Shown: one piece after another, positions 29,608-50,450 of the stretch
How the letters are laid out: every line of letters begins with the position of its first letter
Numbering within the stretch: the stretch's first letter is position 1
Assembly (NCBI GenBank): GCA_029862005.1
Contig: JAOTYD010000006.1
Span: 69,758 to 133,757, forward strand
From: Gammaproteobacteria bacterium
Lineage (GTDB): Bacteria > Pseudomonadota > Gammaproteobacteria > GCA-001735895
DNA length: 64,000 nucleotides
Direction of reading: 5' to 3'
The notes under the pieces: model-generated
The model's database searches: none
Told to the model about the DNA's origin: nothing
The model's input: only the letters and a program-made list of their open reading frames with translations
Program-made: the position numbers and the translations under genes

Positions 29608-29619
29608 ATCTAATCTCCT

Positions 29620-31118: not shown

Positions 31119-31149
31119 GTTTATTTTCCCGTGTTATTACAGCCACTAG

Positions 31150-35635: not shown

Positions 35636-35637
35636 AT

Positions 35638-38304
35638 ATGAATAAAAATCACCCTTTTATTAAGATCATTTCACTCCTTGCACTGGGCGCGATGATGGCG
35701 GCCTGTGACAGTGGCGGCGTTGGCACCACGGCTAACCAGAACCTGGGTAACACGGCTAACAATTTCGCCTACACCGGTCCGGCCGCGCGCGACATCGCCG
35801 TCAGTAATTTCCAGTACTACCTATGGCGGAACGTGACCGACGTAACCCGCTGCGGCGGCTGTCATAACTCAGAAGCCAGCGCGCCGGTTACCCCGTTATT
35901 CTTCGATACCTCCAATGTTAACGTAGCTTACGACGCGACTGTGGCCAGGGATCCGTCACTTTTACCCGCGAATCTACCGACGATGAATCCGTTGAACGCG
36001 GTATTTGTCGACAAGCTCAACAATAATCACTTTTGCTGGGAGACCAATCCCGCGATCTGCGCCACGCTGATAGCTGGTTGGATCGACGACTGGAAAAATG
36101 CGGCCAATGGCGGCGCTGGGGCGCGCCAGATCAATCTGACTGCACCGGCCAGCATCAGGGACCCGGGCGACTCCAAGTCGTTTCCCGCCACCGCGACCAC
36201 TGTCGGCACCAACGGCACCAGTTTCGCCGATACCGTGTACGAGCTGCTGGTTGGCAGCAACCCGGTAATTGCCGACAATAACTGCCAGAACTGCCACAAT
36301 GAAGTTGGCCCAATATTGCCGCAGGCGCCGTTTTTTGCCCACACCGATGTCGATGTAGCTTACGAGGCCGCCAAGTCAAAAATGGACATCGATACACCCG
36401 CTAATTCGCGATTGGCCGTGCGCCTGTTCGAGCAGCACAACTGCTGGAGCACCTGTGGCCCCGACGAAACGCTGATGGTGCAGAGGATCACGGATTTTGC
36501 CGATGGCATTGCGGTTTCGTCGATCGACCCCACCCTGGTCACCAGTAAGGCACTGACCCTGGGCGAAGGTATTATCGCCTCCGGTGGCAATCGCCATGAA
36601 ACCGATCAATTCGCCATCTGGGAATTCAAAACCGGCACTGGTCTGACCGCTTACGACACCAGCGGTGTCGGCGCCTCGATCAACCTGTCACTGATCGGCA
36701 GCGTCAACTGGGTTGGCGGCTATGGTCTCGAATTCACTGGTGGACGGGCACAGGCCGATACTATCAGCAGCGATAAAATCTTTACCTATCTTCAGGATAC
36801 CGGTGAATATGCCATCGAAGCCTGGGTCATCCCGGCCAACGTCACCCAGGAAGACGCCAATATCGTCAGTTACTCCGGTGGTGACCTCGCGCGCAATTTC
36901 ACGCTGGGCCAGGATATGTACAACTACGAGTCTTACAACCGGATTGACTCGGTTATTCCTGCACCGAACGGCGAACCCGTTATGTCTACCGGGGAAGACG
37001 ACGAGGAGCTGGCGCAAGCCAGCTTGCAGCATGTCGTGATCAACTATGATCCCCTCGATCGCCTTGGCAATGGCGCTGGCCGCAGCATTTACGTCAACGG
37101 CCAGCTGGTCAATAACCTGACTGACACCGCGGCGGGATTACCGATCACAAACGTCTGGGACGATACTTTCGCATTCATCCTCGGCAACGAAATCTCAGGA
37201 AACCGCCCGTGGATGGGACAGGTCAAAATGGTTGCGCTACACAACAGGGCACTAGCCCAACCAGAGATTCAGCAGAACTTCGACCTCGGCGTCGGCCAGA
37301 AATTCCTGCTGCTATTCTATGTCGGTCATCACCTCGGTGAAATCGGCAACCCCAACAGCTTTATCATGTTCGAGGTGGCCCAGTTCGACAGCTACAGTTA
37401 CCTGTTCAACAAGCCCACGTTCGTCACCCTTGATGGCAGTGCCCCGAGTTCAGACATTGATATTAAAGGCCTGCGTATCGGCATCAACGGCAAAGAGGCG
37501 CTCGCAGGCCAGGCTTATGCCAACCTCGACACCAGCGTCATCGCCGCCACCTACGACCCGGCGACCGGCCAGGAACTGTCTTCTAAGGGTACTATTATTT
37601 CGCTCGAAAAAGGCTCCGACAGCGACGAGTTCTTCCTGACTTTCGAGGATTTCAACGGCTTCACCAAGGCCTTTAGTGATATCGTTCCGACAGTAGCTGC
37701 CGATCCGGGCGATCCGGTCAACCCGCTTGAGGCCGACATCGGCGTGCGCACCTTCCAGGAGATCAATGTGACCATCGCCGAGATTACCGGCGTGCCTGTC
37801 ACCAACACGGCAGTCGCAACGGTTTACAACGACTACATCCAGCAGTTGCCGACGATAGAGGCGATCGAAGCCTTCCTGCCCTCGCACCAGATGGCGATCG
37901 CGCAACTCGCGTTGACTTCCTGTAGCGAACTGGTCGAAGGCAACGGTTCGATACCCAGGGCGACCTACTTCCCTGGATTCAATTTCGGCACCAACGCGCA
38001 AACCGCTTTCGATACCCAGGCCGAGCGAGATGCGATTATCGATCCGCTGCTAAGCGCGGCGATGAACGTCGACCAGGCCACGCCTGCGAATAATCTCATC
38101 ACGCAACCAGTGGAACTGGAAGTCGCTGACTTGCTGAGTTCTCCGGCCGCGCAGGATCTTGATCCCGCACTCACCGGCGACTCGTATGACAGTCTGATAA
38201 CAGAAATGTTATCCGATCTCGTAAACACGCCAGCACGCACCGAGCAAATCGTGAAAGCCGTCTGCGCCGTCGCCACTGGTGGCGCGGTAATGCTAGTACA
38301 ATAG
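35638..38304 (+). CDS. lipoprotein with two cytochrome-c-like CxxCH modules and a LamG/concanavalin-like domain
   Basis: Lipobox LGAMMAAC. CGGCH at 35851-35865 and CQNCH at 36283-36297 lie in an internally duplicated module (...P..FF...V.VAY). Jellyroll/LamG-like middle region. RBS AGGGAG. Confidence 0.68.
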   Translation: MNKNHPFIKIISLLALGAMMAACDSGGVGTTANQNLGNTANNFAYTGPAARDIAVSNFQYYLWRNVTDVTRCGGCHNSEASAPVTPLFFDTSNVNVAYDATVARDPSLLPANLPTMNPLNAVFVDKLNNNHFCWETNPAICATLIAGWIDDWKNAANGGAGARQINLTAPASIRDPGDSKSFPATATTVGTNGTSFADTVYELLVGSNPVIADNNCQNCHNEVGPILPQAPFFAHTDVDVAYEAAKSKMDIDTPANSRLAVRLFEQHNCWSTCGPDETLMVQRITDFADGIAVSSIDPTLVTSKALTLGEGIIASGGNRHETDQFAIWEFKTGTGLTAYDTSGVGASINLSLIGSVNWVGGYGLEFTGGRAQADTISSDKIFTYLQDTGEYAIEAWVIPANVTQEDANIVSYSGGDLARNFTLGQDMYNYESYNRIDSVIPAPNGEPVMSTGEDDEELAQASLQHVVINYDPLDRLGNGAGRSIYVNGQLVNNLTDTAAGLPITNVWDDTFAFILGNEISGNRPWMGQVKMVALHNRALAQPEIQQNFDLGVGQKFLLLFYVGHHLGEIGNPNSFIMFEVAQFDSYSYLFNKPTFVTLDGSAPSSDIDIKGLRIGINGKEALAGQAYANLDTSVIAATYDPATGQELSSKGTIISLEKGSDSDEFFLTFEDFNGFTKAFSDIVPTVAADPGDPVNPLEADIGVRTFQEINVTIAEITGVPVTNTAVATVYNDYIQQLPTIEAIEAFLPSHQMAIAQLALTSCSELVEGNGSIPRATYFPGFNFGTNAQTAFDTQAERDAIIDPLLSAAMNVDQATPANNLITQPVELEVADLLSSPAAQDLDPALTGDSYDSLITEMLSDLVNTPARTEQIVKAVCAVATGGAVMLVQ

Positions 38305-38316
38305 GATTCGAATATC

Positions 38317-39945
38317 ATGGCCAGATTTAAAAAGAACCAGTACATCCCCCCCCAGGCACCGTTGTTGTACGAAGACCACGGACGTCCTGTCACCCGACGG
38401 CAGTTTATTCGCCAGGGCATGATGACCGGCTCGGCTACCGTGCTTTCGGCCGGCGCCTTCGGTATGTTTGCGAATCCGAACATGGCGCGTGCAGCGGTCG
38501 CACCCGATCTTGACGCCCTCGCGACCGATATCGGCTGTATCCTGGGCGGTGTCGGCGCCGGTCAAAGCGTACCCTTTATCGCCTTTGACCTGGCCGGGGG
38601 TGCTAATTTTGCTGGCTCCAACGTGCTGGTCGGCCAGGGCGGCGGACAGATGGATCTGCTGTCCACGGCCGGTTACAGCAAACTCGGTCTGCCGGGCGAT
38701 ATGCTGCCCGGACAGGACAGCACCGGCGTAACCCTGTTAAATACCAGCGCCAACAACGATTTCACCAATAATGATCTCAATCTCGTATTTCATGCGGATA
38801 GCCCGATGCTGTTCGGCATTCTCGAGAAAGCCAGCACGGCAATCGGCAATGTCGATGGCGCCGTGATCCCGGCACGCTCGGACAACGACACCGGCAACAA
38901 TCCGCATAACCCGCTCTACCCGCTGGCGATGGCCGGTGCGCGCGGCAGTGTGGTCGACCTGATTGGTTCGCGCAGTAGCGTCTCGGGCGGCAACTCGATG
39001 GCGCCGGCGATGTATATCGATCCCAATTTCCAACCCACCAAGGTAGATCGTCCCAGCGATGTCACCGGGCTTGTGGATGTCGGCGATCTGACCACAATCC
39101 TGGGTCCGGACGATGTCACCGCGGTGATGGAATCCATTACCCGGATAACCCACAAAAAACTCAAGCTGGGTACCATCGACACCGGGCTGACCAACGACGA
39201 CGTGGTCAAGGACCTGGTACGCTGTGGCTACCTCAAGGCCTCCGACATCGCCGACCGCTTTGCCGGCGTCGAAGTCGATCCGACACTCGATACCAACATT
39301 GCTGGTCCGATCTTTTCGGCAACCGAACTGGCCAACGATGGTGAGTTCAGAAAAACCGCCTCGGTCATGAAAATGGTCATGAATGGCTATGCCGCAGGCG
39401 GCTGCATCACCATGGGTGGCTATGATTACCACACCGGTGACCGGCGCGTCGGTGAAAATCGCGATTTGCGGGCCGGGCGCTGCATCGGCGCCTGCCTCGA
39501 ATATGCGCGCCTGCTGGCGTCTCCGCTAATGATTTACGTGTTTAGCGACGGTTCGGTGGCCAGTAACGGTAACACCGACGATACCGCGTCTGCCGGTGCT
39601 GGTGAGAACCTGGTACTCGGTGGCGGCGGCAAGGGCGAATGGACTGGCGATAATTCCTCGACCGCCTGTTCCTTTTTCCTGGTGTTCGACCCGACAGCCG
39701 CACCTACGCTGGTCGGCACACGCCAGATCGGACGTATGAACGCAGGCGCTTCCGTGGTCACCTCGGCCACGCCCGCGGCAAATAACGTCAACCTGCTGGT
39801 TAATATGGTCATACTTAACTATATGGCCGTGAACGGGCAGGTGTCGCCCGGAAATACAACCGCCTTCACCAATATTTTTCCGAATCACGGCCTGGGTAAT
39901 CAGGCAAACCTGGACAGCTTTATTTCGTTTGGTTCTTTGGTGTAA
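38317..39945 (+). CDS. Tat-signal secreted protein of unknown function (possibly DUF1501 / sulfatase-superfamily-like)
   Basis: Twin-arginine motif TRRQFIRQG plus an h-region. 542 aa. Tightly coupled to the preceding heme lipoprotein. Confidence 0.6.
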   Translation: MARFKKNQYIPPQAPLLYEDHGRPVTRRQFIRQGMMTGSATVLSAGAFGMFANPNMARAAVAPDLDALATDIGCILGGVGAGQSVPFIAFDLAGGANFAGSNVLVGQGGGQMDLLSTAGYSKLGLPGDMLPGQDSTGVTLLNTSANNDFTNNDLNLVFHADSPMLFGILEKASTAIGNVDGAVIPARSDNDTGNNPHNPLYPLAMAGARGSVVDLIGSRSSVSGGNSMAPAMYIDPNFQPTKVDRPSDVTGLVDVGDLTTILGPDDVTAVMESITRITHKKLKLGTIDTGLTNDDVVKDLVRCGYLKASDIADRFAGVEVDPTLDTNIAGPIFSATELANDGEFRKTASVMKMVMNGYAAGGCITMGGYDYHTGDRRVGENRDLRAGRCIGACLEYARLLASPLMIYVFSDGSVASNGNTDDTASAGAGENLVLGGGGKGEWTGDNSSTACSFFLVFDPTAAPTLVGTRQIGRMNAGASVVTSATPAANNVNLLVNMVILNYMAVNGQVSPGNTTAFTNIFPNHGLGNQANLDSFISFGSLV

Positions 39946-39969
39946 GCTAACCTTTTTGGTGCACTTTAC

Positions 39970-40989
39970 ATGTCTGAATCTCTGGCAGGCAAAGCCAATG
40001 GTTTGCCTCGGCAGACATTAGCCTCGTCTATCTTTACGATAATTCTCCTGTGTAGCCAAACGACGGCGCACGCCGAATGGCATCAACAGCAGCGCGACAT
40101 CATGGGAACCCGGGTTTCAGTTGAACTCTGGCATGATGAAGCCACAACCGCATCCAGATGCAGTGAAAAGGTTTTCACCGAAATGCGTCGCATCGAAGCA
40201 AGGATGAGCTCATATAAAAGCGACAGTGAGCTTTCATTTATCAATGACAACGCCGCGATGAACGCGGTCAAAATCAGTGATGAAATGATGCATCTGATTA
40301 AAAGATCGATTCACTTCTCCGAGGTTTCGAAAGGCGCGTTCGATATCACTTATGCCAGCGTCGGCTATGCCTACGACTACCGTAAACGCCAGCAGCCCAG
40401 CAATGAATCTATCTCGGAGAAACTGCCAGCTATCGACTATCATCATATTATGATTTCCGGAGATGAGATTCAGTTTGGCAACGATGCGGTACGTATCAAC
40501 CTCGGCGGCATCGCCAAGGGTTACGCGGTCGATCGTGCTGCCGATATTATCGGCCAGTGTGGCATCACCGAGGCCATGGTAAGTGCGGGCGGTGACAGCC
40601 GTATCATCGGAGATCGCAAGGGTCGCCCCTGGGTCATGGGTATCAAGCATCCTCGCGACCCTGAGGGCATTGCGATACGTCTGCCGCTCAGCGAAAGCGC
40701 GATTTCAACGTCGGGTGATTACGAGCGGTTTTTTATTGACGACGGCAAACGCGTGCATCACATTATCAATCCCGCCACCGGCCGCTCCGCGACGGCCAGC
40801 TGGAGTGCAACCGTCGTCGGCCCCGATGCCCTGACAACTGACGCTTTATCTACTACTATTTTTATTCTGGGTGCAGTCGACGGAATTACCCTGATTGAAA
40901 CCCTGGAAGGAATCGACGCCATCATTATCGATAGCGATGGAAAAGTGCATTACTCCTCTGGCTTTGAAGTACCTGAAGTCAAACAATAA
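39970..40989 (+). CDS. apbE: FAD:protein FMN transferase (ApbE family)
   Basis: Lipoprotein-like signal; the ApbE fold signature is spread along the protein. Confidence 0.85.
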   Translation: MSESLAGKANGLPRQTLASSIFTIILLCSQTTAHAEWHQQQRDIMGTRVSVELWHDEATTASRCSEKVFTEMRRIEARMSSYKSDSELSFINDNAAMNAVKISDEMMHLIKRSIHFSEVSKGAFDITYASVGYAYDYRKRQQPSNESISEKLPAIDYHHIMISGDEIQFGNDAVRINLGGIAKGYAVDRAADIIGQCGITEAMVSAGGDSRIIGDRKGRPWVMGIKHPRDPEGIAIRLPLSESAISTSGDYERFFIDDGKRVHHIINPATGRSATASWSATVVGPDALTTDALSTTIFILGAVDGITLIETLEGIDAIIIDSDGKVHYSSGFEVPEVKQ

Positions 40990-41011
40990 TCGCCCAAAAT
41001 CTAGCAGACCT

Positions 41012-41620
41012 ATGAAATATTTCAGCCTTATCATCCTTTTACTTGTTTACCTCGCCGTTCCCGTTGTCGGGCAGGAAACTTCATCAGAGTTGATCGAAGG
41101 CGAGATCGAAGTGCCACAAGCGGAAGAATCGGACGAGGCCAATGCAGAATCGATCGATGAAGATGAGTCCCTGGAAGGCTCGCTCGACGCGGATATCGAA
41201 GCCCTGAAAAAAGAAGTACTATCGCTTAACCGGGACCTGTTTATCCTCGAAGAGGACTTACTGTTTCCTTCGAACACCCAGTTCAGCGTCTTCCTGTCGA
41301 TGAACGCCGGTGCACTGTTCAGTCTCGATTCGATCCAGCTGAAAATTGACGACAAGAACATCGCCAATCACCTGTACACCGAGCGCGAACTCGCGGCCCT
41401 CAAGCGCGGTGGCGTGCAGCGTCTCTACATCGGCAACCTGCCGACAGGTGAGCACGAAATTATCCTGATTTTTACCGGGGTTGGACCCAAGGGTCGGGAC
41501 TACCGCCTCGGTGAAACAATCGTCATAGAAAAGACAACCGATCCCCAGTTCGTGGAATTCATGATCGCTGATGATACCGGTAAGGAACAACCTCAATTCG
41601 ATGTGCGTGTCTGGGAATAA
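41012..41620 (+). CDS. secreted acidic coiled-coil protein
   Basis: Signal peptide, a D/E-rich stretch, a coiled coil (ALKKEVLSLNRDLFILEEDL), then a beta-rich C-domain. Confidence 0.5.
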   Translation: MKYFSLIILLLVYLAVPVVGQETSSELIEGEIEVPQAEESDEANAESIDEDESLEGSLDADIEALKKEVLSLNRDLFILEEDLLFPSNTQFSVFLSMNAGALFSLDSIQLKIDDKNIANHLYTERELAALKRGGVQRLYIGNLPTGEHEIILIFTGVGPKGRDYRLGETIVIEKTTDPQFVEFMIADDTGKEQPQFDVRVWE

Positions 41621-43487
41621 GCGCCATCAAAAATTCCTGAGGCACGTATCGCGCGGCATTCGTCGCTCATTCTACGGGCTACTGTTAAGCTGTGCCTGCA
41701 GCCCGGTCATCGCGGTTCAAACGGTCGAACATAGAGTCGAGGATCTCGACTATGGTCGCGCACTCTACCAGTTTTTCCAGGATAGCAGGCTGGCGGCAAT
41801 TACCCAACTGATGATAGCCGCGGAAAGACCTCGCAGCCGTAGCCAGGTCAATGAGTCCAACCTGTTGCTCGCAGATCTATACTACGGGTACGGGCTATAC
41901 GAAGAATCGCGCGACCTGTTTGCCCAGCTCCTGACCGCCGAGGTTTCGGACTCGATTCAAAACAGGATCTGGTTCAACCTGGCACGGCTTCGCTACGAGC
42001 AGGGTTACTATGAACCAGCGCTTGACCTGCTATCACGCATTAACGACCAGCTACCGGGTGGTGTGGAGTCAGAAAAGAGATACCTGCTGACCAACCTTTA
42101 TCTTGACAATCGCCAGTACGACGAGGCCGCCGATCTCAGCAACCAGATCAACCCGAAATCGATCTGGAAGATCTACGCGCGCTACAACCTGGCGGTAACG
42201 CTCATCGAAGACGATCGCTACGAGTCCGGTAAGACACTGCTCGAAAAGATCGGCCAGATGGAAGCCGGTACACCCGAATTGATTGCCCTGCGCGATCGCG
42301 CAAATCTTTCGCTGGGGCTCAAACAGCTGCGCATGGAACTGGCCGAGCCGGCACTGGAAAGCCTTTCCAGGATCAGGCTCGAGGGACCCCTGAGCAACGA
42401 GGCGCTACTTGCATCCGGCTGGGCCTGGTATCGACTCGGCAAGTTCGACAAGGCAATGATCCCCTGGCAGGTGCTGCTGCAGCGCAACGCAGTAGATGCA
42501 GCGACACAGGAAGCGATCCTGGCGATTCCCGCCAATTACGCCAAGTCAGGCCAGGACGGGCTGGCAGTACGCCATTATGAAATTGCCGCGACACAGTTTG
42601 ATTTGCAGCTGCAGTTGCTCGATAACGCGATCAAGTCGATCGAAAGTGATGAATTAATTGCAGCGCTGCGGGAAAACGCCATTCTCTACGATCGCAGCAG
42701 CCTGCAACGCTTACCACCGAGTTCCGATGTTACCCCGCAATTACACCTTCTGCTGGCTTCGACAGAATTTCAACGCGAAATTACACGCTACCAGGAATTG
42801 CTCGATATTCGTAACTCGCTTCGATTCTGGGGCAATAACTTCCCTGCTCTGGAGCTGATGCTGTCAGAGCGTCGCCGTGGTTTTGAAAACAAGCTGCCGT
42901 TACTGCAGCAATCCAGCAGTTTCGATCAGCTCGATCTACTGCGTGAACAGAGGGACCAGTTTGCCGGCCGGGTCAGTGCGATCGAGGCGGCACAAGACTT
43001 CGAGGCGCTCGCAAATCCGGATGAGCAGGAACAGCTGTCAAGGCTGCAACGCGTCTCGACGTCTATTGACATGGTCGCACCGGAACGTAATACGGCCTAC
43101 CAGCAGGATATGTTTCGCCTGTTATCCGGATTGCTGCGGTACGAGTTGGAGACCGACTTTCCGGTAAGATTCTGGAAAACAAAGAAACAGCTGATACTGC
43201 TGGATCGTGCACTGGCTGAATCCGAGCAGCGGGTTAATGACTTACGCAGGATCACGGAGCGTACCGACCTCGAGTTCGGTCTGTTCGAGAAACGCATCGG
43301 CGGCCAGACAGAGCGCATCAGTCAATTGCGTAGCAAGGTCTCAACCCTGTTGTCGTCACAGGAGCGACTCATCAATCAAATGGCAATTGACGCCATTCGT
43401 CAACAGCAGCAGCATATCGTGCAGTTACGCCTTAATGCCCGTTTTGAACTGGCCAAAATTTTCGACCGGATGGCGGCAGAACAATGA
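41601..43487 (+). CDS. TPR-repeat protein with C-terminal coiled coil
   Basis: Signal-like N-terminus (…RRSFYGLLLSCACSPVIA), multiple TPR-like helices, long coiled-coil tail. Start is uncertain: ATG 41601 overlaps the upstream gene by 20 nt. Confidence 0.6.
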   Translation: MCVSGNKRHQKFLRHVSRGIRRSFYGLLLSCACSPVIAVQTVEHRVEDLDYGRALYQFFQDSRLAAITQLMIAAERPRSRSQVNESNLLLADLYYGYGLYEESRDLFAQLLTAEVSDSIQNRIWFNLARLRYEQGYYEPALDLLSRINDQLPGGVESEKRYLLTNLYLDNRQYDEAADLSNQINPKSIWKIYARYNLAVTLIEDDRYESGKTLLEKIGQMEAGTPELIALRDRANLSLGLKQLRMELAEPALESLSRIRLEGPLSNEALLASGWAWYRLGKFDKAMIPWQVLLQRNAVDAATQEAILAIPANYAKSGQDGLAVRHYEIAATQFDLQLQLLDNAIKSIESDELIAALRENAILYDRSSLQRLPPSSDVTPQLHLLLASTEFQREITRYQELLDIRNSLRFWGNNFPALELMLSERRRGFENKLPLLQQSSSFDQLDLLREQRDQFAGRVSAIEAAQDFEALANPDEQEQLSRLQRVSTSIDMVAPERNTAYQQDMFRLLSGLLRYELETDFPVRFWKTKKQLILLDRALAESEQRVNDLRRITERTDLEFGLFEKRIGGQTERISQLRSKVSTLLSSQERLINQMAIDAIRQQQQHIVQLRLNARFELAKIFDRMAAEQ

Positions 43488-46309
43488 CTAAAAGCCTGTC
43501 CCATCGCCTGCCCATCATGATGCTCACCGCGACACTTGTTGCCTGTGGTTCAGGTGGGTCCGATTTCGGACCGACGATCGGTGATCTCGAGGAACTGCCG
43601 CCCCTGCTGGAGACCGCGGAACTGGAGCCGCAGGCGAGTTTCAAAGTCGATCGTCAGCAAGTCATAGACAGCTTTCGGGCCCTGGTTGAGATAACGGCCG
43701 ACGGTGGCGGTACCGGAGATGAATTACGACGCCTGGCTGATCTCGAACTGGAATCCAGCCTCGATAACCGAATATCCGATGACGAGACGACCCAGCAGCA
43801 GGGCATTGGCGAAGCGGCACGGGCAATCGGGATTTACGAAGCCTATCTTAAAAAATACCCCGAACGCCCGAGTAACGATATGGTGCTTTACCAATTGTCT
43901 CGTGCCTATGCCCTCGAAGCTGAATCTGAAAAATCCATAGCCGCGCTGGATCGCATCGCGCGCGAGTACCCGGATTCACAATACATGGACGAGGTTCAGT
44001 TCCGGCGTGGCGAGAACCTGTTTGTGCAGCGGGAATACCAGGCTGCAGAGCAGGCTTATGGCAAGGTCGTAAACGATCACCCGGATTCGCTGTTTTTCGA
44101 AAAAGCGCTCTATAAATATGGCTGGACGCAGTTCAAACAGAGTCGCTATCGCGATGCCCTAGCCAGCTACACGCGCTTGCTCGACGTCAATTTTGAACAG
44201 GATAAGATCTGGGAAATCGGTTTCAATCCAGGGCTGCCTAGAGCAGATCGGGAGCTACTCGAAGATGTCGTGCGCGTCGTCTCACTCAGCTTTTCCTACC
44301 AGGACGAAAAATACTATATTGCACAATACTTCAATGAAACCGGAAAGCGAAACTACGAGCCCCTGCTTTACCTGCGGCTGGGCGAACTTTACCTGGACAA
44401 AAAGCGCATCATCGACGGTTCGGATCTGTTCCTGGCCTACACCAAGCAATACCCCTACTCATCGCATACCCCGCGTTTTCACCAGCGTGCAATTGAAACC
44501 TTCCAGCAAGCCGGTTATTCGGACCTGGTGCTAAAAGAAAAGATCGCCTTCGTTAACCGCTACGACGTAAACGGCGAATACTGGGCGTTGCAGGAACCCG
44601 AAACCCAGCGAACCCTGACCAAGACCCTGGTCTTGCACATGACCGAGCTGGCTACCCATTTTCACGCACTGGCCCGGGCCAGCAAGAAAATGAAAGACTA
44701 CGGGATTTCGGCCGACTGGTATCGCCGCTTTCTAAAATCCTTTCCGAATGATCCGGGCGCACCGCGGATGAATTTTCTGCTCGCCGAAAACCTCTACGAT
44801 GCAGGTCAATATCCGCAGGCAATCGACGAGTACCAGAAAACAGCATATAACTATGCGCCACACAAGGATAGTGCCGAGGCAGGCTACGCAGCGCTGATCG
44901 CGTTTGATGCCCTGTTCAAGACGACCAATGCAAGTGACATTCCCGCATTGCGGCGCAAGCGCATTAAATCGGCGGTCCGCTTTACCACGGCTTATCCCGA
45001 TGATCCCCGATTGTCGGTGGTTGAACTGCAGACCGCACAACAGTTCTTCAAGTGGAAGAATTATCCTGACGCGATCGCGTCGGCAAACCGCCTGATTGAA
45101 AACCAGCGCGTTGACAAAACCACCAAGCAAACCGCGTGGACAATACTGTCCGATGCGCAGTTTTCAACGGCGGACTACGCCGCGGCTGAAAAATCCTATC
45201 TCACGCTGCTGACTTTTATGCCGAAACAGGACCAGAAGAGAAAGGCAGTGCGCGAACAGGTCGCCGCGAGTATTTACAAACAGGGGGAAATCGCTCGTGA
45301 GGTGGGGAATCACCTGCTCGCAGCACAAACCTTCACCCGACTTGGCCAGGTGATCCCAGAATCTCCAAAACGCAAGGTCGCCGACTACGATGCGGCAACC
45401 GCGTACATACAACTCGAAGACTGGTCGACCACGATCGCGCAACTGGAAGCCTTTCGCAAGAGATACCCGAGTGATAAAAAGTTCACGGATGGTGTCACCG
45501 AGAAACTCGCGCTGGCCTACAGCAAAAATGGAAACCAGTCCAAGGCGGCGCGGGAAATACTCGCGTTATCGAATCTTCCCGGCACGGCTGAGCGCAAGCG
45601 GGACCTGATGTGGCGTGCTGCCGAACTGTATCAGCAGGACGGCCAGCCCGAACAGGCGATTGCAATCTACAAGCAGTACGTCAAGGTTTATCCCTACCCG
45701 CTGGAACGCTCGATCGAACTGCGTCACAAGATCGCCGAATCATATCGCGCCAAGAACGATACCAAGAACCGTAATTACTGGCTCAACGAAATTATCAGGG
45801 CGGATGCAGCTGGAAAATCGGAACGCAGTGCACGTAGCCGGTACCTGGCCGCTACCGCCAGCCTGGAATTGATCCAGCCACTGCATCGAACCTATAGCAA
45901 AGCCAGGCTGACAATACCGCTTAAAACCAGCCTGGGCAAAAAGAAAAAACTGATGCAACAAGCGATTGACGCCTACAGCAAGGCAATGAAATACCAGGTG
46001 CAGGAAGTAACCACCGAAGCCACGTTCCAGATTGCCGAAATCTACCATGATTTCGCAAGATCCCTGATGGATTCACAAAGACCCAAGGGTCTTGATGAAG
46101 AACAACTCGAAGAGTACGAACTGTTGCTGGAAGAACAGGCCTTTCCGTTCGAGGAGAAGGCAATCGATATACATCTGGCGAACTTCAAGCGCATCCCCGC
46201 CGGCACTTTCGATGAACCCACGAAAAAGAGTTTACAGGTCCTGGGTGAAATGATGCCGTTTCGTTACGCCCGGGCTGAGAGCACTGATAATTATGTTGAA
46301 ATTCAATAA
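43484..46309 (+). CDS. large TPR-repeat lipoprotein
   Basis: Lipobox LVACGS; about 940 aa of TPR-like repeats. ATGA overlap with the upstream gene. Confidence 0.72.
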   Translation: MTKSLSHRLPIMMLTATLVACGSGGSDFGPTIGDLEELPPLLETAELEPQASFKVDRQQVIDSFRALVEITADGGGTGDELRRLADLELESSLDNRISDDETTQQQGIGEAARAIGIYEAYLKKYPERPSNDMVLYQLSRAYALEAESEKSIAALDRIAREYPDSQYMDEVQFRRGENLFVQREYQAAEQAYGKVVNDHPDSLFFEKALYKYGWTQFKQSRYRDALASYTRLLDVNFEQDKIWEIGFNPGLPRADRELLEDVVRVVSLSFSYQDEKYYIAQYFNETGKRNYEPLLYLRLGELYLDKKRIIDGSDLFLAYTKQYPYSSHTPRFHQRAIETFQQAGYSDLVLKEKIAFVNRYDVNGEYWALQEPETQRTLTKTLVLHMTELATHFHALARASKKMKDYGISADWYRRFLKSFPNDPGAPRMNFLLAENLYDAGQYPQAIDEYQKTAYNYAPHKDSAEAGYAALIAFDALFKTTNASDIPALRRKRIKSAVRFTTAYPDDPRLSVVELQTAQQFFKWKNYPDAIASANRLIENQRVDKTTKQTAWTILSDAQFSTADYAAAEKSYLTLLTFMPKQDQKRKAVREQVAASIYKQGEIAREVGNHLLAAQTFTRLGQVIPESPKRKVADYDAATAYIQLEDWSTTIAQLEAFRKRYPSDKKFTDGVTEKLALAYSKNGNQSKAAREILALSNLPGTAERKRDLMWRAAELYQQDGQPEQAIAIYKQYVKVYPYPLERSIELRHKIAESYRAKNDTKNRNYWLNEIIRADAAGKSERSARSRYLAATASLELIQPLHRTYSKARLTIPLKTSLGKKKKLMQQAIDAYSKAMKYQVQEVTTEATFQIAEIYHDFARSLMDSQRPKGLDEEQLEEYELLLEEQAFPFEEKAIDIHLANFKRIPAGTFDEPTKKSLQVLGEMMPFRYARAESTDNYVEIQ

Positions 46310-46934
46310 CATAACCGCACTTTTACTTGCCGCATTACTGCTCGTAGCCTGCCAGAGCGGTCCCGACAAGGCATCGCCTCCAAAACCCGAGGTCGCGGCG
46401 ACGCCGAGTACAGAAGAGCCAGCAACTGAAGCAGAGGTGGTGGATTTTTATCAGCAATTTTATGAAGACGCGGTGGCTTCGCTTAAAAGCGGCAAAACTG
46501 CGCAAGCAGTAGAACTGCTGGTGCAGGTCAGCAACGATGCACCCGACAAGCCCTACGTTTTCACTAACCTCGGGCTCGCTTACTTCAAACTGCAGGAACT
46601 GGACCTTGCAGAACAGGCGTTCAAACAGGCAATTACGCGCGACGATAATGATGCCGTTGCGCATAACCATCTCGGAATCCTGCAGCGCCAAAAAGGGCAA
46701 TTTAAAGAGGCGATGAATCGCTATCAACGTGCCATTAAGATCGATTCCAGCTACGCGTCGGCGCATCTGAACCTCGGCATCCTATTCGATATCTACCTGC
46801 AGGATCTGGACCTGGCGTTACGACATTACCAGAATTACCAGTCTCTGATCGGCGAGGAAGATACCCAGGTGGCCAACTGGATTGTCGACATCAAGCGACG
46901 CCTGAAATCGGGCACTACCAAGTCCCAGGGATAA
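46293..46934 (+). CDS. TPR-repeat lipoprotein
   Basis: Lipobox LLVACQS; three or four TPR motifs. Confidence 0.72.
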   Translation: MLKFNNITALLLAALLLVACQSGPDKASPPKPEVAATPSTEEPATEAEVVDFYQQFYEDAVASLKSGKTAQAVELLVQVSNDAPDKPYVFTNLGLAYFKLQELDLAEQAFKQAITRDDNDAVAHNHLGILQRQKGQFKEAMNRYQRAIKIDSSYASAHLNLGILFDIYLQDLDLALRHYQNYQSLIGEEDTQVANWIVDIKRRLKSGTTKSQG

Positions 46935-46938
46935 ACAA

Positions 46939-47223
46939 ATGAGAAAACTTTCGCTAGCATTTTTCCTATTATTTGCTATTTCAAGTACTGCTAATGTGTG
47001 TGCTCAAGAAAGACTGCAAATGGAAGGCACCGAGATAACCGGAAACAAGGAATTGCCCAGGGTTTTGTATATCGTTCCATGGAAATCGGTTGAACGTTTC
47101 GAGATTTCGTCACCCCCGATTACAAGTATCATGGACCAGCAACTAACCCCCATCGAAAGGGCTGCTTTCAAACGACAGATTCACTATCACGACGCCATTT
47201 TTTCAAAGGCAAAACTGGAATAA
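46939..47223 (+). CDS. small secreted protein
   Basis: 94 aa with signal peptide; lies immediately upstream of exbB. Confidence 0.45.
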   Translation: MRKLSLAFFLLFAISSTANVCAQERLQMEGTEITGNKELPRVLYIVPWKSVERFEISSPPITSIMDQQLTPIERAAFKRQIHYHDAIFSKAKLE

Positions 47224-47259
47224 TCCAGCAGTTGACCAGAGACCGCGGAGGCTCTCGCA

Positions 47260-47907
47260 ATGAACGAAATACTAGTTACAGTAATCAGGTTTTTCCAGGA
47301 CGGTGGACCATTCATGTACCCTATTCTGATTGTTCTGGCTATCGGCCTGGCGATTACGATAGAGCGCTGGTTGCATCTTACCGTTGCAAAAACGAAAAAT
47401 CGCCTCATGATTGCCAAGCTGATGCCACTGGTGGCAAAAGGTGATGTAAACAACGCCAGCGAACTCGCTCGAAAATCAAGCGCTACGGTTAGCCGAATTC
47501 TGCTGCAGGGTATCGAGCATTACAAATCTGCTCGCCGCAGGGATGATTTCGAATCGGCAATGGATGAGAGCATCATGGAGGCAATTCCACGTCTCGAAAA
47601 GCGCACCCATTACCTGGCAATGTTTGCCAATATAGCGACCCTGCTCGGGCTGCTGGGAACAATTATCGGCTTGATCAAGGCGTTCACCGCGGTCGCCCAG
47701 GTCGATCCATCGATGAAAGCGGAGATACTATCAACCAGTATATCGGTCGCTATGAATACCACCGCGTTCGGACTCATCGTCGCGATCCCGCTATTATTTT
47801 TCTACACGGTATTACAAACCAAGACGACCGAAATCGTCGACAGCCTTGAGATGACTGTCGTCAAGTTCGTCAATCATTTATCTCGCGTTAAAAACAGCGC
47901 CGGGTAG
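47260..47907 (+). CDS. exbB: MotA/TolQ/ExbB proton-channel family protein
   Basis: 3-TM topology with conserved C-terminal TM helices. RBS GGAGG. Confidence 0.9.
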   Translation: MNEILVTVIRFFQDGGPFMYPILIVLAIGLAITIERWLHLTVAKTKNRLMIAKLMPLVAKGDVNNASELARKSSATVSRILLQGIEHYKSARRRDDFESAMDESIMEAIPRLEKRTHYLAMFANIATLLGLLGTIIGLIKAFTAVAQVDPSMKAEILSTSISVAMNTTAFGLIVAIPLLFFYTVLQTKTTEIVDSLEMTVVKFVNHLSRVKNSAG

Positions 47908-47916
47908 GTACTACAA

Positions 47917-48408
47917 ATGTCAAGACGGGTACATCGGCGCAAGCATCCGGCTGTCGAGCTGAACATTACTGCCTTCATGAACTTGATGGTAGTGCTGGTG
48001 CCTTTCTTATTGATGACGGCGGTGTTCAGCCATATCACCATCCTCGATTTAAACCTGCCCCCACCGGGCGGGCAGGATACCAAGCAACCAAAAAAGCCTC
48101 CTTATGAACTGCGCATCACGATTCGCAAAAATATGCTGGTGCTCTCCGATAACCGCCTGGGCTTGATTCAACGTATTCCGTCCAAGGGCAAAGAACATAA
48201 TTTCGCCATGCTGAAGGAGACCCTGAAACAGGTTAAAGCTCGGATTCCCAAGCATACCAATATCACGATCCTGGCCGAGCAACAAACCCGTTATAACGAC
48301 CTGATCAGAGCGATGGACAGTTCGCGTTCGTACCGCACAGAAGTCGAGGGTGAGTGGGTCTTTGCCGAACTGTTCCCCGATATATCGATTGGCGATGCGG
48401 CCAGGTGA
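47917..48408 (+). CDS. exbD: ExbD/TolR family protein (copy 1)
   Basis: Single TM (LNITAFMNLMVVLVPFLLM) plus periplasmic domain. Confidence 0.88.
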   Translation: MSRRVHRRKHPAVELNITAFMNLMVVLVPFLLMTAVFSHITILDLNLPPPGGQDTKQPKKPPYELRITIRKNMLVLSDNRLGLIQRIPSKGKEHNFAMLKETLKQVKARIPKHTNITILAEQQTRYNDLIRAMDSSRSYRTEVEGEWVFAELFPDISIGDAAR

Positions 48409-48426
48409 TAACAGGATGTTGATGCA

Positions 48427-48918
48427 ATGAAATTATCCAGACGCGCCAAACGCATGAATCAGCACCACGTTCGTGGGCAGAAGCGAAACGCCATGTTAAA
48501 CATGGTGTCGTTAATGGATATATTTACGATCCTGGTTTTTTTCCTGTTGGTGAATGCGACCAGTACCCAGATTTTGCCCTCACCCAAGAACATCGTGTTA
48601 CCCGAGGCCGCGGCTGAGAAATTGCCTTCCCGCAACCTGGTCATCGCCGTTGACGAACGTGTCATCCGCCTGCAGGGGAAAGCCATTGTTACGGTCAAGG
48701 ATGCGCTCAAAGGTGACCGCAACTCGATCAAGCCTCTGTTTAATGCGTTGCGACTTGCCTCGACGACGGTCAAGGATATCACCGACAAGCAGGGTGTTAC
48801 GATTATGGGTGACCAGGAGATTCCTTACCTGCTGCTGAAAAAGATCATGCTGACCTGTGCCGGTGCGCAATATACCAATATCTCGTTCGCTGTAAACCAG
48901 AAGGTATTAGACAGCTAA
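48427..48918 (+). CDS. exbD: ExbD/TolR family protein (copy 2)
   Basis: Paralogous to copy 1 (MVSLMDIFTILVFFLL). Confidence 0.88.
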   Translation: MKLSRRAKRMNQHHVRGQKRNAMLNMVSLMDIFTILVFFLLVNATSTQILPSPKNIVLPEAAAEKLPSRNLVIAVDERVIRLQGKAIVTVKDALKGDRNSIKPLFNALRLASTTVKDITDKQGVTIMGDQEIPYLLLKKIMLTCAGAQYTNISFAVNQKVLDS

Positions 48919-49910
48919 TGGCAAGGGCAGTGGCTATATCCGAACCGAATCTGCCCTGGATCGACCAGCAGGAAGATCGCAGTTTTCGCCGCCTATTGAT
49001 TATTATGATGCTGCTGTTTTTAGGCGTGGGCGTGGTATTGAATACGATCAAGCTGCCGGAAGTAGTACAGAAAAACCTGGTCGATGTTTCACCGCGCCTC
49101 GCGAAGCTGATCCTGGAAAAGCAAAAAGTTAAACCACCACCTCCCAAGAAAGAAAAACCAAAGGAAGTAAAGAAAAAGGAGCCTGAAAAAAAGAAAGAAA
49201 AACCGAAAAAAAAGGAACCTGAGAAAAAGAAGCCTGAGAAAAAGAAGCCTGAGAAAAAGAAGCCTGAGAAAAAGAAGGAAGTTAAGAAACCCGACGCACG
49301 TGAAGTCGCCAAGAACGCGGGCCTGATCGCGTTAAGTGATGAGCTCGAGGACTTGCGTGAAAGCTTTGCCCTCGACGACGTCGCCAAATTGCCGCAACAA
49401 ACGACCGGCAAGCAGGCAGTCAAGGTCGCGACTGCCAGCGACCTGCTAACCTCGAGCGCGCAAAGAACCAGCGGCGGCATAAAGACAGATACTCTCAACC
49501 GCACCATAAAAACCAATGAATTAACACAACGTCAGACCACGAGGGTTGAAAGCAAGATCGAAGCCGACAGTAAAAAGCTCGCCAAGGCCTCTACCACCCA
49601 GACCCGGGGGGGATCGGCCGCCAGGCGCAGCGAGGATGAAATCGAACGTATTTTCCAGCAAAACAAAGGCGGTATCTTTAATATCTATAATCGGGCATTG
49701 CGCAAAAATCCGTCACTCGCCGGACAGGTTGTGGTTGAACTGACGATCGCGCCCGGCGGTCAGGTGACCGCGGTTAAAATTCTCTCCAGCGAGTTGGGTG
49801 ACGAGACACTCGAGCGTAAATTGATACTAAAGATAAAAAAATTCAAATTCAGCAGTTCCAACGTGGCCGAAATCACGGTCACCTATCCAATCGACTTTCT
49901 GCCCTCCTGA
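48918..49910 (+). CDS. tonB: TonB-family energy transducer with Pro/Glu/Lys-rich linker
   Basis: N-terminal TM helix, KKPEKKK-rich spacer, C-terminal TonB_C-like domain (GQVVVELTIAPGGQVTAVKILSS...). Confidence 0.8.
   Translation: MARAVAISEPNLPWIDQQEDRSFRRLLIIMMLLFLGVGVVLNTIKLPEVVQKNLVDVSPRLAKLILEKQKVKPPPPKKEKPKEVKKKEPEKKKEKPKKKEPEKKKPEKKKPEKKKPEKKKEVKKPDAREVAKNAGLIALSDELEDLRESFALDDVAKLPQQTTGKQAVKVATASDLLTSSAQRTSGGIKTDTLNRTIKTNELTQRQTTRVESKIEADSKKLAKASTTQTRGGSAARRSEDEIERIFQQNKGGIFNIYNRALRKNPSLAGQVVVELTIAPGGQVTAVKILSSELGDETLERKLILKIKKFKFSSSNVAEITVTYPIDFLPS
49218..49277 (+). repeat. perfect 4x15-nt in-frame tandem repeat (CCTGAGAAAAAGAAG, encoding PEKKK) inside the tonB-like linker
   Basis: Four identical nucleotide copies read directly in the sequence. 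Confidence 0.9.
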
Positions 49911-49916
49911 GCGCAA

Positions 49917-50435: not shown

Positions 50436-50450
50436 TTTAAGAAACTACCG

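Follow-up and report, generated by a model that had tools for sequence, protein, structure and literature searches.

A set of genes for TPR proteins and an ExbB/ExbD/ExbD/TonB-like motor is found in the 64 kb stretch of gammaproteobacterial DNA analysed here (referred to as the window). It raises the question of which kind of energy-transducing machine these genes encode and what that machine serves.

Gene content of the core block

The features of the window are collected in Table 1. ORF and domain analysis placed eight core genes, all on the plus strand, at 41601-49910, and the TPR/ExbB/ExbD/ExbD/TonB-like module proposed in an earlier note was borne out. For the GltC-like TPR protein existing gene callers give 628 residues, and an alternative ORF start at 41571 gives 638. 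Its N-terminal half consists of TPR repeats. The C-terminal third is charged, helical and low in Pro and Gly, in line with the coiled-coil tail suggested earlier, but its heptad periodicity is only moderate and such a tail is no more than plausible. The status of this protein as a lipoprotein (sequence LLSC) is uncertain. The lipoboxes of the 941- and 213-residue proteins agree with the two TPR lipoproteins that had been claimed.

Table 1. Coordinates of the core genes, the ninth gene and the redox genes of the window.
Feature	Coordinates	Strand	Length (aa)	Characteristics
DUF3570 protein	27650..28822	-		Pfam DUF3570 139 bits
DUF4266 lipoprotein	28866..29090	-	74	C-terminus GGGCGCN; Pfam DUF4266 79.4 bits
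Thioredoxin-like (Redoxin/TlpA) periplasmic protein	29095..29607	-		Pfam Redoxin 111.8 bits
Small outer-membrane barrel	29620..30273	-	217	TIGR04565 OMP_myx_plus 144 bits (cut-off 60)
Outer-membrane barrel with periplasmic SH3 domain (SH3-OMP)	30243..31118	-	291	Pfam SH3_3, OMP_b-brl
HZS-alpha-like haem lipoprotein	31150..33975	-		beta-propeller repeats, 2 CXXCH; Pfam HZS_alpha 56.5 bits, PD40
Secreted one-CXXCH protein	34322..35635	+	437	
LamG-domain lipoprotein	35632..38304	+	890	two CXXCH; Pfam Laminin_G_3 63.8 bits; lipobox
Tat-signal protein	38317..39945	+	542	RRQFIRQG motif
ApbE flavin transferase	39970..40989	+		Pfam ApbE 263 bits
Near-constant ninth gene, secreted protein	41012..41620	+	202	signal peptide
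GltC-like TPR protein	41601..43487	+	628	Pfam TPR_16/TPR_19
GltD-like TPR lipoprotein	43484..46309	+	941	lipobox LVAC; many TPR families
GltE-like TPR lipoprotein	46293..46934	+	213	lipobox LVAC
Small secreted protein	46939..47223	+	94	signal peptide; gltF position
AglR-like MotA/TolQ/ExbB stator subunit	47260..47907	+	215	3 TM; Pfam MotA_ExbB 105.6 bits
ExbD/TolR paralogue 1 (AglQ position)	47917..48408	+	163	one TM; Pfam ExbD 62 bits
ExbD/TolR paralogue 2 (AglS position)	48427..48918	+	163	one TM; Pfam ExbD 55 bits
GltG-like TonB/TolA-type transducer	48918..49910	+	330	one TM; AgmX/PglI-type TonB_C domain
DsbD	57437..59887	+		Pfam DsbD_TM 314 bits, DsbD_N 188 bits

In profile searches the GltD-like protein matches YbgF with 97.9 bits and contains YbgF/BamD-like repeats; it has 2065 database relatives at E<=1e-10. 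The GltE-like protein scores 50.8 bits against NF033758 gliding_GltE, where the equivalog cut-off is 225, and it also matches PilW, Tgl and other TPR-lipoprotein models. Profile searches assigned the 94-residue protein to no Pfam or NCBIfam family. It is present in all 40 of the related loci with full flanks (see below), its conserved features being the motif G.xE.PxxLYIVPW and, at the C-terminus, a helix-like segment.

The ninth gene, overlooked in the earlier reading, lies immediately 5' of the GltC-like gene in 38 of these 40 loci, with identities of 28-81%. Its product consists of an acidic disordered linker, a long helix and an 8-strand beta-sandwich (AF2 mean pLDDT 76), and a PDB fold search gave no significant match. 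The name 'AraC family regulator', which NCBI gives to some of its 3127 relatives, is a mislabel.

The core belongs to a run of 16 plus-strand genes (34322-50918) which overlap or are separated by gaps of at most 36 bp, and this spacing fits one transcript. A scan for promoters and terminators in the sequence gave the same result as in shuffled sequence. In species-representative genomes a relative of the 941-residue protein is encoded in 591 of the 600 pattern-matched stretches, among the matches listed, and the entire gene order was found again in the 80 loci fetched. The arrangement is therefore not due to chance.

Relationship to the Agl-Glt core complex

In order and size these genes correspond to the Agl-Glt core complex described by Luciano et al. 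2011 (GltC-GltD-GltE-extra gene-AglR-AglQ-AglS-GltG), and the module is therefore of an already known kind. The core sizes of 628/941/213/94/215/163/163/330 residues may be compared with 634/941/243/[unlisted gene]/217/170/163/371 for Methylibium Mpe_A1224-1231, which Luciano et al. assigned to GltC, D, E, AglR, Q, S and GltG. In their Table S3, GltC homologues of like position and size are Mpe_A1224 and Tgr7_0543 (620 residues), the MXAN_4870/GltD homologue Mpe_A1225 has exactly the length found here, and the GltE homologues occupy the same position. For four genomes that table passes over one locus tag between gltE and aglR; the 94-residue protein is this 'additional gene' of the core. The Thioalkalivibrio and Methylibium of their list overlap with the loci studied here (Thioalkalispiraceae, Ectothiorhodospiraceae, Aquabacterium). 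The monophyly with Myxococcus AglRQS is a statement of the literature.

The kinship with the TPR plus MotA/TolQ/TolR-like core behind Agl-Glt, to which the earlier note had pointed, is confirmed by gene order and sizes, by an AgmX/PglI domain scoring above its cut-off and by the alignment to GltG. It is very probable that 41601-49910 is a member of the Agl-Glt core complexes, with GltC/D/E-like proteins, a small secreted protein, an AglR-like channel, two ExbD/TolR-like proteins that differ from each other and serve as plug subunits, and a GltG-like transducer. In contrast to the Myxococcus Agl-Glt system only the core is found, with no FHA domain in the GltG-like protein, and GltF, H, I, J, K and cytoplasmic platform genes were not seen.

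Motor subunits and transducer

The AglR-like protein has hydrophobic segments at residues 16-34, 121-139 and 163-188. Among named families it matches TolQ with 70 bits and ExbB with 46 bits, scores that fall well short of the equivalog cut-offs, and against the PDB it is equidistant from ExbB (36 bits) and TolQ (33 bits). The two ExbD paralogues differ at the proton-accepting position. In the first, N22 aligns with the proton-accepting D25 of E. coli ExbD, and of 67 sequences (window and homologues) 52 have Asn here and 15 have Asp. The second keeps the transmembrane Asp (D31), found in 64 of 64 sequences.

The GltG-like protein consists of a short cytoplasmic N-terminus, a transmembrane segment (26-44), a spacer (60-127) composed of 47% K, 18% P and 18% E, an S/T/A-rich linker and a C-terminal domain. 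This domain scores slightly below the cut-off of Pfam TonB_C (23.0 against 24.6 bits), and above those of TIGR01352 tonB_Cterm (38 against 27.1 bits) and the NF033768 AgmX/PglI C-terminal domain (74.8 against 40 bits). The alignment to the GltG model spans 335-644 of its 650 positions (54 bits), which corresponds to the part from the transmembrane segment to the C-terminus.

All Ton and Tol equivalog models score far below cut-off for the core proteins (for example ExbB 46 against 206 bits, TonB 23.6 against 265 bits). A TonB-dependent receptor was found neither among the window ORFs of at least 500 residues nor in any annotated related locus. The divergent promoter region contains no Fur box: it reaches 11/19 at most, a score equalled or exceeded at about 280 positions of the window. 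The equal distance from ExbB and TolQ, the low equivalog scores, the receptor-free window and the missing Fur box led us to reject a TonB or Tol system as such. These results uphold the earlier view that the module differs from housekeeping TonB-ExbBD and that no receptor lies next to it. The likeness to Vibrio TonB2 suggested at the same time found no support, since the present module has two distinct ExbD paralogues, no TtpC-like protein and a channel protein equally far from ExbB and TolQ. The absence of a receptor does not imply that an outer-membrane partner is absent.

Redox neighbours and their conservation

The neighbours of the core include candidate redox proteins. The CxGCH-GMD motif of the 437-residue CXXCH protein is invariant across 23 homologues, and no Pfam family was found for it. 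The 542-residue Tat-signal protein has no Pfam, NCBIfam or PDB match; its gene accompanies the two cytochrome-like genes in 20 of 40 loci. The PDB match of the HZS-alpha-like protein (5c2v) is limited to the middle domain. Both haem lipoproteins have Asp at position +2, a residue that leads to inner-membrane retention under the E. coli rule. The SH3 module and C-terminal FF of the SH3-OMP are conserved, and its gene is syntenic in 17 of 19 DUF3570 loci, those with a flank reaching far enough. The 217-residue barrel has a conserved N-terminal periplasmic extension, in which the motif P...RR......ID..FE precedes the barrel. The module from DUF3570 to HZS (27650-33975) lies on the minus strand beyond the coordinates of the earlier reading, which missed it.

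Flavinylation of the DUF3570 family by ApbE was shown experimentally in PMC8238504, where the family is found together with a thioredoxin-like protein, DUF4266 and DsbD and where a 'DsbD system' is described; all of these partners occur in the window. The segments DNVTSASVD and VSASEY align to two conserved [ST][SG]A[ST]-type sites, and the DUF3570 protein is a likely substrate of ApbE. It is probably an outer-membrane barrel, as suggested by amphipathic beta segments and by a terminal F or Y in 19 of 19 homologues (its single-sequence AF2 model has a pLDDT of 36). DsbD may be the source of electrons for the thioredoxin/DUF4266/DUF3570 chain.

Neighbours were counted in the 40 loci with full flanks among the 80 fetched. 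These 80 are the closest relatives (GltD-like identity 36-81%), and the classical carriers of the core complex (Marinobacter, Cellvibrio, Saccharophagus, Geobacter) lie outside the set. The nine-gene nucleus is conserved in 37-40 of the 40 loci (the GltC-like gene in 38). At least one of the HZS-like, cytochrome trio, ApbE and thioredoxin-like genes lies within 10 kb of the core in 35 of 40; a redox neighbour is absent within this distance in 4-5, including contexts of the L025 type with LPS genes upstream. The HZS-alpha-like gene is near the core in 24 of 40 loci, either co-directional or divergent, ApbE is found within 10 kb on either side in 18 of 40, the cytochrome/LamG/Tat trio occurs in about half, and in most loci a Redoxin homologue immediately precedes the ninth gene or DUF4266.

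The arrangements vary. Nineteen other loci have SH3-OMP, OMP, Redoxin, DUF4266, DUF3570, ninth gene and core in this sequence, co-directional and tightly packed (confirmed by Pfam in L012). ApbE is the sole adjacent redox gene in Thiodiazotropha, downstream of GltG, the cytochrome trio is divergent in L010, and Redoxin stands alone in L084. The linkage thus persists in spite of rearrangement in Acidiferrobacterales, Steroidobacteraceae, Woeseiaceae, Sedimenticolaceae, Chromatiales and Burkholderiales. This gene neighbourhood makes it reasonably probable that the core is functionally coupled to the redox module. Of the earlier proposal that the motor energises or assembles outer-membrane redox components, the association itself is supported by the 35 loci, while the action remains conjectural.

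Proposed role and alternative explanations

We propose, with moderate confidence, that the Agl-Glt-type core acts as a PMF-driven transducer for an outer-envelope redox complex. The alternatives need to be weighed against this. An accessory TonB2/TtpC-like system could act on receptors encoded elsewhere, with the redox genes releasing iron reductively from imported chelates. The TIGR01352 match, the TonB-like K/P/E spacer and the association of some other DUF3570 and ApbE clusters with iron transporters (PMC8238504) would fit. However, Ton systems do not have three dedicated TPR scaffolds, no receptor is seen in the window or in an annotated related locus, and a TtpC-like protein and a Fur box are missing; together with the two ExbD paralogues, the low ExbB and TonB equivalog scores and the better fit of the AgmX/PglI subfamily, this makes such a role very unlikely. 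Still more improbable is a machine for gliding or surface motility of the Myxococcus Agl-Glt kind: the genome contains flagellar genes (flgA, D, E, F, N), the GltG-like protein is without FHA, genes for GltF, H, I, J, K and the cytoplasmic platform were not seen, and Luciano et al. hold that the core by itself does not drive motility, despite the core homology and the small barrel of TIGR04565, a family expanded in Myxococcus.

A second Tol-Pal-like system might maintain envelope integrity or tether the outer membrane to peptidoglycan, the redox genes adjoining it for regulatory or historical reasons only. TolQ is the top named family for the channel, the 941-residue protein has YbgF/CpoB-like and the HZS-like protein TolB-like PD40 repeats, the SH3 domain of one barrel could bind peptidoglycan like Pal, and certain loci are without redox neighbours. 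We consider this unlikely, because none of the Tol equivalog models comes near its cut-off, orthologues of Pal and TolB are lacking, and the ApbE/thioredoxin-like/DUF3570 linkage, kept through at least four arrangements in several orders, is hard to explain without a shared function. An aid to cytochrome or lipoprotein biogenesis, in which the TPR proteins chaperone apocytochromes or lipoproteins and the motor powers their passage to the outer membrane or surface, is a specific sub-case of the redox-complex transducer. Weak TPR_CcmH_CycH and TPR_Slam matches, the ccmABC, ccmFGH-I, DsbD and four thioredoxin-like genes of the window, two haem lipoproteins as partners and the control of surface exposure of a lipoprotein by the Myxococcus machine all speak for it. 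Its probability is nevertheless low, as the CcmH and Slam matches are below cut-off and are usual TPR cross-hits, ccm and dsbD are not among the conserved neighbours in the 80 loci, and Asp at +2 speaks against outer-membrane sorting by the E. coli rule.

The mechanism of the proposed redox-complex transducer is inferred from Tol/Ton structures and from an AlphaFold model of the Myxococcus machine, in which AglR5QS is joined to GltG, GltG is wrapped on GltD, and GltC grips the N-terminal strands of outer-membrane barrels. Five AglR-like subunits would surround a heterodimer of both ExbD-like proteins, the second of which alone has retained the protonatable Asp here. Proton flow would drive the single-TM GltG-like protein, whose K/P/E spacer and long linker would extend through the periplasm and attach to the GltD-like scaffold; this would bear the GltE-like lipoprotein and, via the GltC-like protein, reach outer-membrane proteins. 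The ninth-gene and 94-residue proteins probably link the TPR scaffold, the TonB_C domain and the outer-membrane side as adaptors.

The conserved neighbourhood suggests that the target would be an outer-envelope redox assembly and not a TonB-dependent nutrient receptor. This assembly may comprise the ApbE-flavinylated DUF3570 protein with its thioredoxin-like and DUF4266 partners, the two small barrels with their conserved periplasmic handles and the HZS-alpha-like haem lipoprotein, and in this genome additionally the cytochrome/LamG/Tat trio. Most likely the motor assembles or positions this complex, or else exposes or gates it, although any one of these modes taken singly is doubtful. Such a role would parallel that in Myxococcus, where the Agl-Glt outer-membrane platform, via the PMF, controls exposure of the lipoprotein CglB. 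It was from this core, in its non-gliding form, that the gliding machine of Myxococcus evolved. The position of the core beside a flavin, thiol and haem redox kit for the outer envelope in many bacteria provides a testable clue to its role.

Results and Discussion

The features of the window are collected in the table. On the + strand, 16 genes follow one another without a break from 34322 to 50918, either overlapping or separated by gaps of at most 36 bp, and a scan of the window for promoters and terminators gave nothing exceeding background. All elements of the module that the earlier note had described at 41601-49910, namely three TPR proteins, a small secreted protein, a 3-TM ExbB, two ExbD proteins and a TonB_C protein, are present. 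The lipoboxes are clear in the second and third TPR proteins (941 and 213 aa) and doubtful in the first.

Table. Features of the window in order of position
Feature	Coordinates	Strand	Remarks
Flagellar cluster	5433-11042		flgF, flgE, flgD, flgA, flgN
Cytochrome c biogenesis genes	16282-23083	-	ccmH/I, ccmG-like, ccmF, ccmC, ccmB, ccmA
ShlB/FhaC-type transporter	26107-27717	-	POTRA + ShlB; overlaps DUF3570 3' end
DUF3570	27650-28822	-	Pfam
DUF4266	28866-29090	-	ends GGGCGCN (C-terminal CXC)
Redoxin	29095-29607	-
OMP	29620-30273	-
SH3/OMP	30243-31118	-
HZS-like	31150-33975	-
Trio of CXXCH, CXXCH/LamG and Tat-signal proteins	34322-39945	+	437, 890 and 542 aa
Ninth gene	41012-41620	+
Three TPR proteins, 628/638, 941 and 213 aa	within 41601-49910	+
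Secreted protein, 94 aa	within 41601-49910	+	matches no known family
MotA/TolQ/ExbB protein, 215 aa	within 41601-49910	+	three hydrophobic segments
Two ExbD/TolR proteins, 163 aa each	within 41601-49910	+	paralogue 1 at 47917-48408
330-aa protein	within 41601-49910	+	one TM helix, Lys/Pro/Glu-rich spacer, TonB_C-type domain
GNAT	49917-50435		conserved in closest relatives only, among the best 80 of at least 591 loci
Second TlpA	50451-50918		conserved in closest relatives only, among the best 80 of at least 591 loci
253-aa protein and LonC/LonB-like protease	50998-54185	-	one operon
DsbD	57437-59887	+	Pfam
The same DsbD together with the thioredoxin-like gene that follows it	57437-60410	+

The module should be compared with the core complex of Luciano et al. 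2011 (PMC3169522), which consists of gltC, gltD, gltE, gltG, aglR, aglQ, aglS and one extra gene, and which occurs as one cluster of unknown function in some Gamma- and Betaproteobacteria and in Geobacter. In Table S3 of that work the Methylibium genes Mpe_A1224-1231 are given as GltC, GltD, GltE, an unlisted gene, AglR, AglQ, AglS and GltG, with lengths of 634, 941, 243, unlisted, 217, 170, 163 and 371 aa, respectively. The window proteins (628, 941, 213, 94, 215, 163, 163 and 330 aa) stand in the same order with near-equal sizes, as they do in comparison with Thioalkalivibrio Tgr7_0536-0543. Order and sizes also match the Thioalkalivibrio, Marinobacter and Teredinibacter entries of Table S3, including the skipped locus tag between gltE and aglR, and the 94-aa gene is the "additional gene" of Luciano et al. 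The 330-aa protein matches NF033768, the AgmX/PglI C-terminal domain, with 74.8 bits (cut-off 40). It aligns with positions 335-644 of the GltG model, the part from the TM helix to the C-terminus, and has the TM helix and K/P/E spacer expected for a GltG-type transducer. The GltE model gave a weak match to the 213-aa lipoprotein, 50.8 bits, under its cut-off of 225.

From its gene order, protein sizes and domain matches, the module very probably belongs to the known Agl-Glt core complex family, and the link to this core in the earlier note was essentially right. The module itself shows no essential difference from the core complex. New in comparison with it are a ninth near-constant gene, small outer-membrane (OM) barrels, haem lipoproteins, an Asn at the Asp position of ExbD paralogue 1, and the linkage to an ApbE/DUF3570/thioredoxin/DUF4266 module.

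Other systems resemble the module in part. It has in common with TonB-ExbB-ExbD and with Vibrio TonB2-TtpC a TonB_C-family domain, the K/P/E spacer and the MotA_ExbB and ExbD domains. With Tol-Pal (TolQRA-TolB-Pal-CpoB) it shares a 3-TM TolQ-like channel, a TolR-like plug, a TolA/TonB-like transducer and CpoB/YbgF-like TPR repeats in a trans-envelope arrangement driven by the proton-motive force (PMF). However, every Ton and Tol equivalog model scored far under its cut-off: ExbB TIGR02797 46 bits (206), ExbD TIGR02803 24 (153), TonB PRK10819 23.6 (265), TolQ TIGR02796 70 (221) and TolR 30.6 (127). Against PDB structures the channel protein is equally distant from ExbB (36 bits) and TolQ (33 bits), and its ExbD partners are heteromeric. 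As the earlier note had stated, no TonB-dependent receptor accompanies the module: no Plug/TonB_dep_Rec protein occurs among the ORFs of the 64-kb window; neither was a TonB-dependent receptor found in the annotated related loci, and the best Fur-box match in the region 33976-34321 (11/19) does not exceed background. Identity with TonB-ExbB-ExbD was rejected on the model scores and on the lack of a receptor in the window and of a Fur box in that region. The TolQ and TolR scores likewise argue against Tol-Pal, which was rejected with neither a TolB nor a Pal gene in the block; the window has instead two unlike plug paralogues and three large dedicated TPR proteins. The analogy with Vibrio TonB2 drawn in the earlier note was wrong and that identity was discarded, the 215-aa protein being the sole MotA_ExbB protein, with no TtpC-like member of the large MotA/TolQ/ExbB family beside it.

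The similarity to the Agl-Glt machine of Myxococcus xanthus and its Nfs sporulation paralogue is closer, with a putatively homologous AglR5QS-type motor, a GltG-type transducer and GltC/D/E-type TPR scaffolds. The layout also recalls M. xanthus gltB-gltA-gltC, since two small OM barrels, each extended at the N-terminus, are encoded close to the GltC-like gene. Unlike the M. xanthus machine, the module has no FHA domain on its GltG-like protein and no GltF, H, I, J or K, CglB or cytoplasmic platform, and its partners are redox proteins where those of Agl-Glt and Nfs are an adhesin or a spore-coat polymer. On the cytoplasmic side the GltG-like protein has only some 25 residues, and among the NCBIfam gliding models, with Group A GltA, B, F, H, I, J and K looked for, none matched except GltE and GltG. 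A gliding machine was rejected on the absence of FHA from the GltG-like protein, the absence of visible Group A genes, and the presence of flagellar genes. The flagellar cluster identifies the host as a flagellated bacterium; as with other core complexes, all genes of the module stand in one cluster, and the bacterium has flagella and presumably does not glide.

A profile of the 941-aa GltD-like protein was run against one genome per species and gave at least 591 confirmed relatives; a search of the same protein against plasmids gave no match. The best 80 of these loci (36-81% identity), which may not represent the whole family, were compared by tblastn with all window proteins. They come from Thioalkalispiraceae, Acidiferrobacterales, Chromatiales, Thiodiazotropha/Sedimenticolaceae, Steroidobacteraceae, Woeseiaceae, Ectothiorhodospiraceae and Burkholderiales. 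Among the best 80 of at least 591, a nucleus of nine genes, formed by the eight core genes and the gene of a 202-aa secreted protein directly upstream, is present in 37-40 of the 40 loci with full flanks. Of these best-matching full-flank loci, 35/40 also have one or more redox neighbours, a count that rises to 36 with a weak Redoxin match found with a second query set in locus L059. One of the four full-flank loci without a redox neighbour has an assembly gap.

Three layouts recur among the best 80 of at least 591 loci. Nineteen loci share the co-directional, closely packed series (ApbE)-HZS-like-x-SH3/OMP-OMP-Redoxin-DUF4266-DUF3570-ninth gene-core, as confirmed by Pfam in one of them (L012). 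In about 20 loci, as in the window, the HZS-like gene is divergent and the trio is followed by an ApbE or thioredoxin-like gene and then by the ninth gene; the redox module of the first layout is found in the window on the minus strand. The third layout takes several forms: ApbE comes after the GltG-like gene in Thiodiazotropha, and the ninth gene is preceded by ApbE-Redoxin in Woeseiaceae and by Redoxin alone in locus L084. A distant relative (L053, 1-6500) has the core without the ninth and GltC-like genes; upstream lies a + strand run of genes resembling an alternative-complex-III-type cluster. In locus L002, from the complete-chromosome MAG CP070646.1, the core is flanked by N runs at 9565-9664 and 15786-15885 of the locus. 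The sequence upstream of the first run has no match in the window although the core is 81% identical, so that a scaffolding gap or misjoin is probable there. The LonC/LonB-like AAA+ protease (809 aa) and the 253-aa protein without known family that precedes it are conserved with the cluster in the closest relatives only (L001 and L003, among the best 80 of at least 591).

Experiments by Meheust et al. 2021 (PMC8238504) showed that the cognate ApbE flavinylates the DUF3570 family at two [S/T]GA[S/T] sites; these authors described ApbE, DUF3570, a thioredoxin-like protein and DUF4266 (with DsbD) as a system of unknown function and report no association with a MotA/ExbD/TonB_C/TPR machine, a small OM barrel or an HZS-like haem protein. 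All five components are present in the window; the difference is that here they form one block with such a machine, small OM barrels and HZS-like haem proteins. In the window DUF3570 protein, DNVTSASVD and VSASEY occupy two conserved flavinylation-type columns and are predicted sites. Its homologues end in F or Y in 19/19 cases and have about 12 amphipathic beta segments, which fits a putative outer-membrane barrel; a single-sequence AF2 model (pLDDT 36.5) was unusable. The 217-aa barrel matches TIGR04565 "OMP_myx_plus" with 144 bits and has a conserved N-terminal periplasmic motif, while in the 291-aa barrel a periplasmic SH3 domain is conserved.

The HZS-like gene codes for a lipoprotein of 941 aa that combines PD40 propeller repeats with an HZS-alpha middle domain and two sites for haem c, although the host is a gammaproteobacterium and no anammox organism; the literature names no function for HZS_alpha-domain proteins outside anammox bacteria. 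The haem lipoproteins carry Asp at +2, a possible sign of inner-membrane anchoring. The trio is conserved and, the LamG domain apart, belongs to no Pfam family. It consists of the 437-aa protein with an invariant CxGCH-GMD motif, a lipoprotein with 2 CXXCH motifs and a LamG domain, and the Tat-signal protein, for which sequence comparison with Pfam, NCBIfam and the PDB gave no match. The trio is reminiscent of the cytochrome-like and Tat-protein pairs of Planctomycetes (DUF1549/1553 + DUF1501), and the GGYDYH motif of the Tat-signal protein may resemble DUF1501. An SGAT in the 437-aa cytochrome-like protein was considered as a flavinylation site and dropped because only xATAG is conserved. Downstream of DUF3570, the ShlB/FhaC-type two-partner-secretion OM transporter has no TpsA-like cargo nearby; it is not counted as a member of the system because it has no counterpart in the best 80 of at least 591 loci. 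The neighbourhood is rich in genes of cytochrome c biogenesis and thiol redox, with five thioredoxin-like genes in the window (17948, 29095, 50451 and 59877, plus the DsbD C-terminal domain).

In ExbD paralogue 1, Asn22 aligns with the essential Asp25 of E. coli ExbD. Among the window protein and its aligned homologues this position is Asn in 52/67 and Asp in 15/67, while paralogue 2 keeps the Asp in 64/64, so that most stators of the clade would have one protonatable Asp. Judged from the alignments, the stator plug would be heteromeric and by nature "half-site". AF2, run with 72 sequences, models the ninth protein (pLDDT 76) with a signal peptide followed by a disordered acidic linker, a helix of 33 residues and a sandwich of eight strands, and the predicted fold has no significant match in the PDB. 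The protein is named "AraC family transcriptional regulator" in NCBI records, one of them 100% identical (P0121); this looks like a propagated misannotation because a signal peptide is present and a DNA-binding domain is lacking. In the 94-aa protein a strand-like motif towards the N-terminus, G.xE.PxxLYIVPW, is strongly conserved and is joined by a helix-like segment at the C-terminus; its gene occupies the position of gltF in Myxococcus. The AlphaFold model of the Myxococcus machine shows GltF as a bridge between the TonB_C sheet of GltG and a groove of GltC. By analogy, we infer that the 94-aa protein may be a GltF-like adaptor.

Homology shows the module to be a PMF-driven stator and transducer of the Tol/Ton type, with TPR scaffolds of the Glt type. 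Following published models, force would pass from the GltG-like protein to the GltD/E-like proteins, then to the GltC-like protein and to the N-terminal handles of the OM barrels. In Myxococcus, both an OM platform and the surface exposure of a lipoprotein are under the control of the machine. The conserved neighbourhood suggests that the platform here would be a DUF3570/small-barrel/haem-lipoprotein redox assembly, fed by ApbE and the thiol-disulfide proteins. Gene neighbourhood alone makes functional coupling of the core to the redox module fairly likely. Any one mode of action, in which the core assembles, exposes or gates the redox assembly, is taken singly improbable. Only tentatively can it be proposed that the ancestral Agl-Glt core was a proton-driven energiser dedicated to an OM flavin/haem redox complex, pulling on or gating an ApbE-flavinylated DUF3570 barrel and its small-barrel/haem-lipoprotein partners through the GltG/GltD/GltC-like proteins.

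Biological Significance

Luciano et al. 2011 (PMC3169522) regarded the function of the core in non-gliders as the key to the origin of the gliding machine, and in the Agl-Glt literature searched this function is nowhere reported for non-gliding bacteria. The ApbE/DUF3570/DUF4266/thioredoxin set is likewise an experimentally confirmed flavinylation module without known role (PMC8238504). The Agl-Glt core-complex module was already known; what is added is the conserved joining of two orphan systems. Several orders of Proteobacteria have them, along with small OM barrels and haem lipoproteins, as a single conserved block of genes. Each orphan system thereby gains a concrete, testable partner, and the function of the core becomes a testable question. 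Genetics is feasible because cultured carriers exist (Aquabacterium, Methylibium and Thioalkalivibrio). The block also suggests redox chemistry of the outer envelope as a task that Tol/Ton-like motors driven by the PMF can serve. If the proposal of an ancestral energiser is true, the core would be a Ton-like motor that serves electron transfer outside the cytoplasm or the exposure of redox proteins, not nutrient import, and this would explain both the role of the core complex in non-gliders and the purpose of the orphan DUF3570 system.
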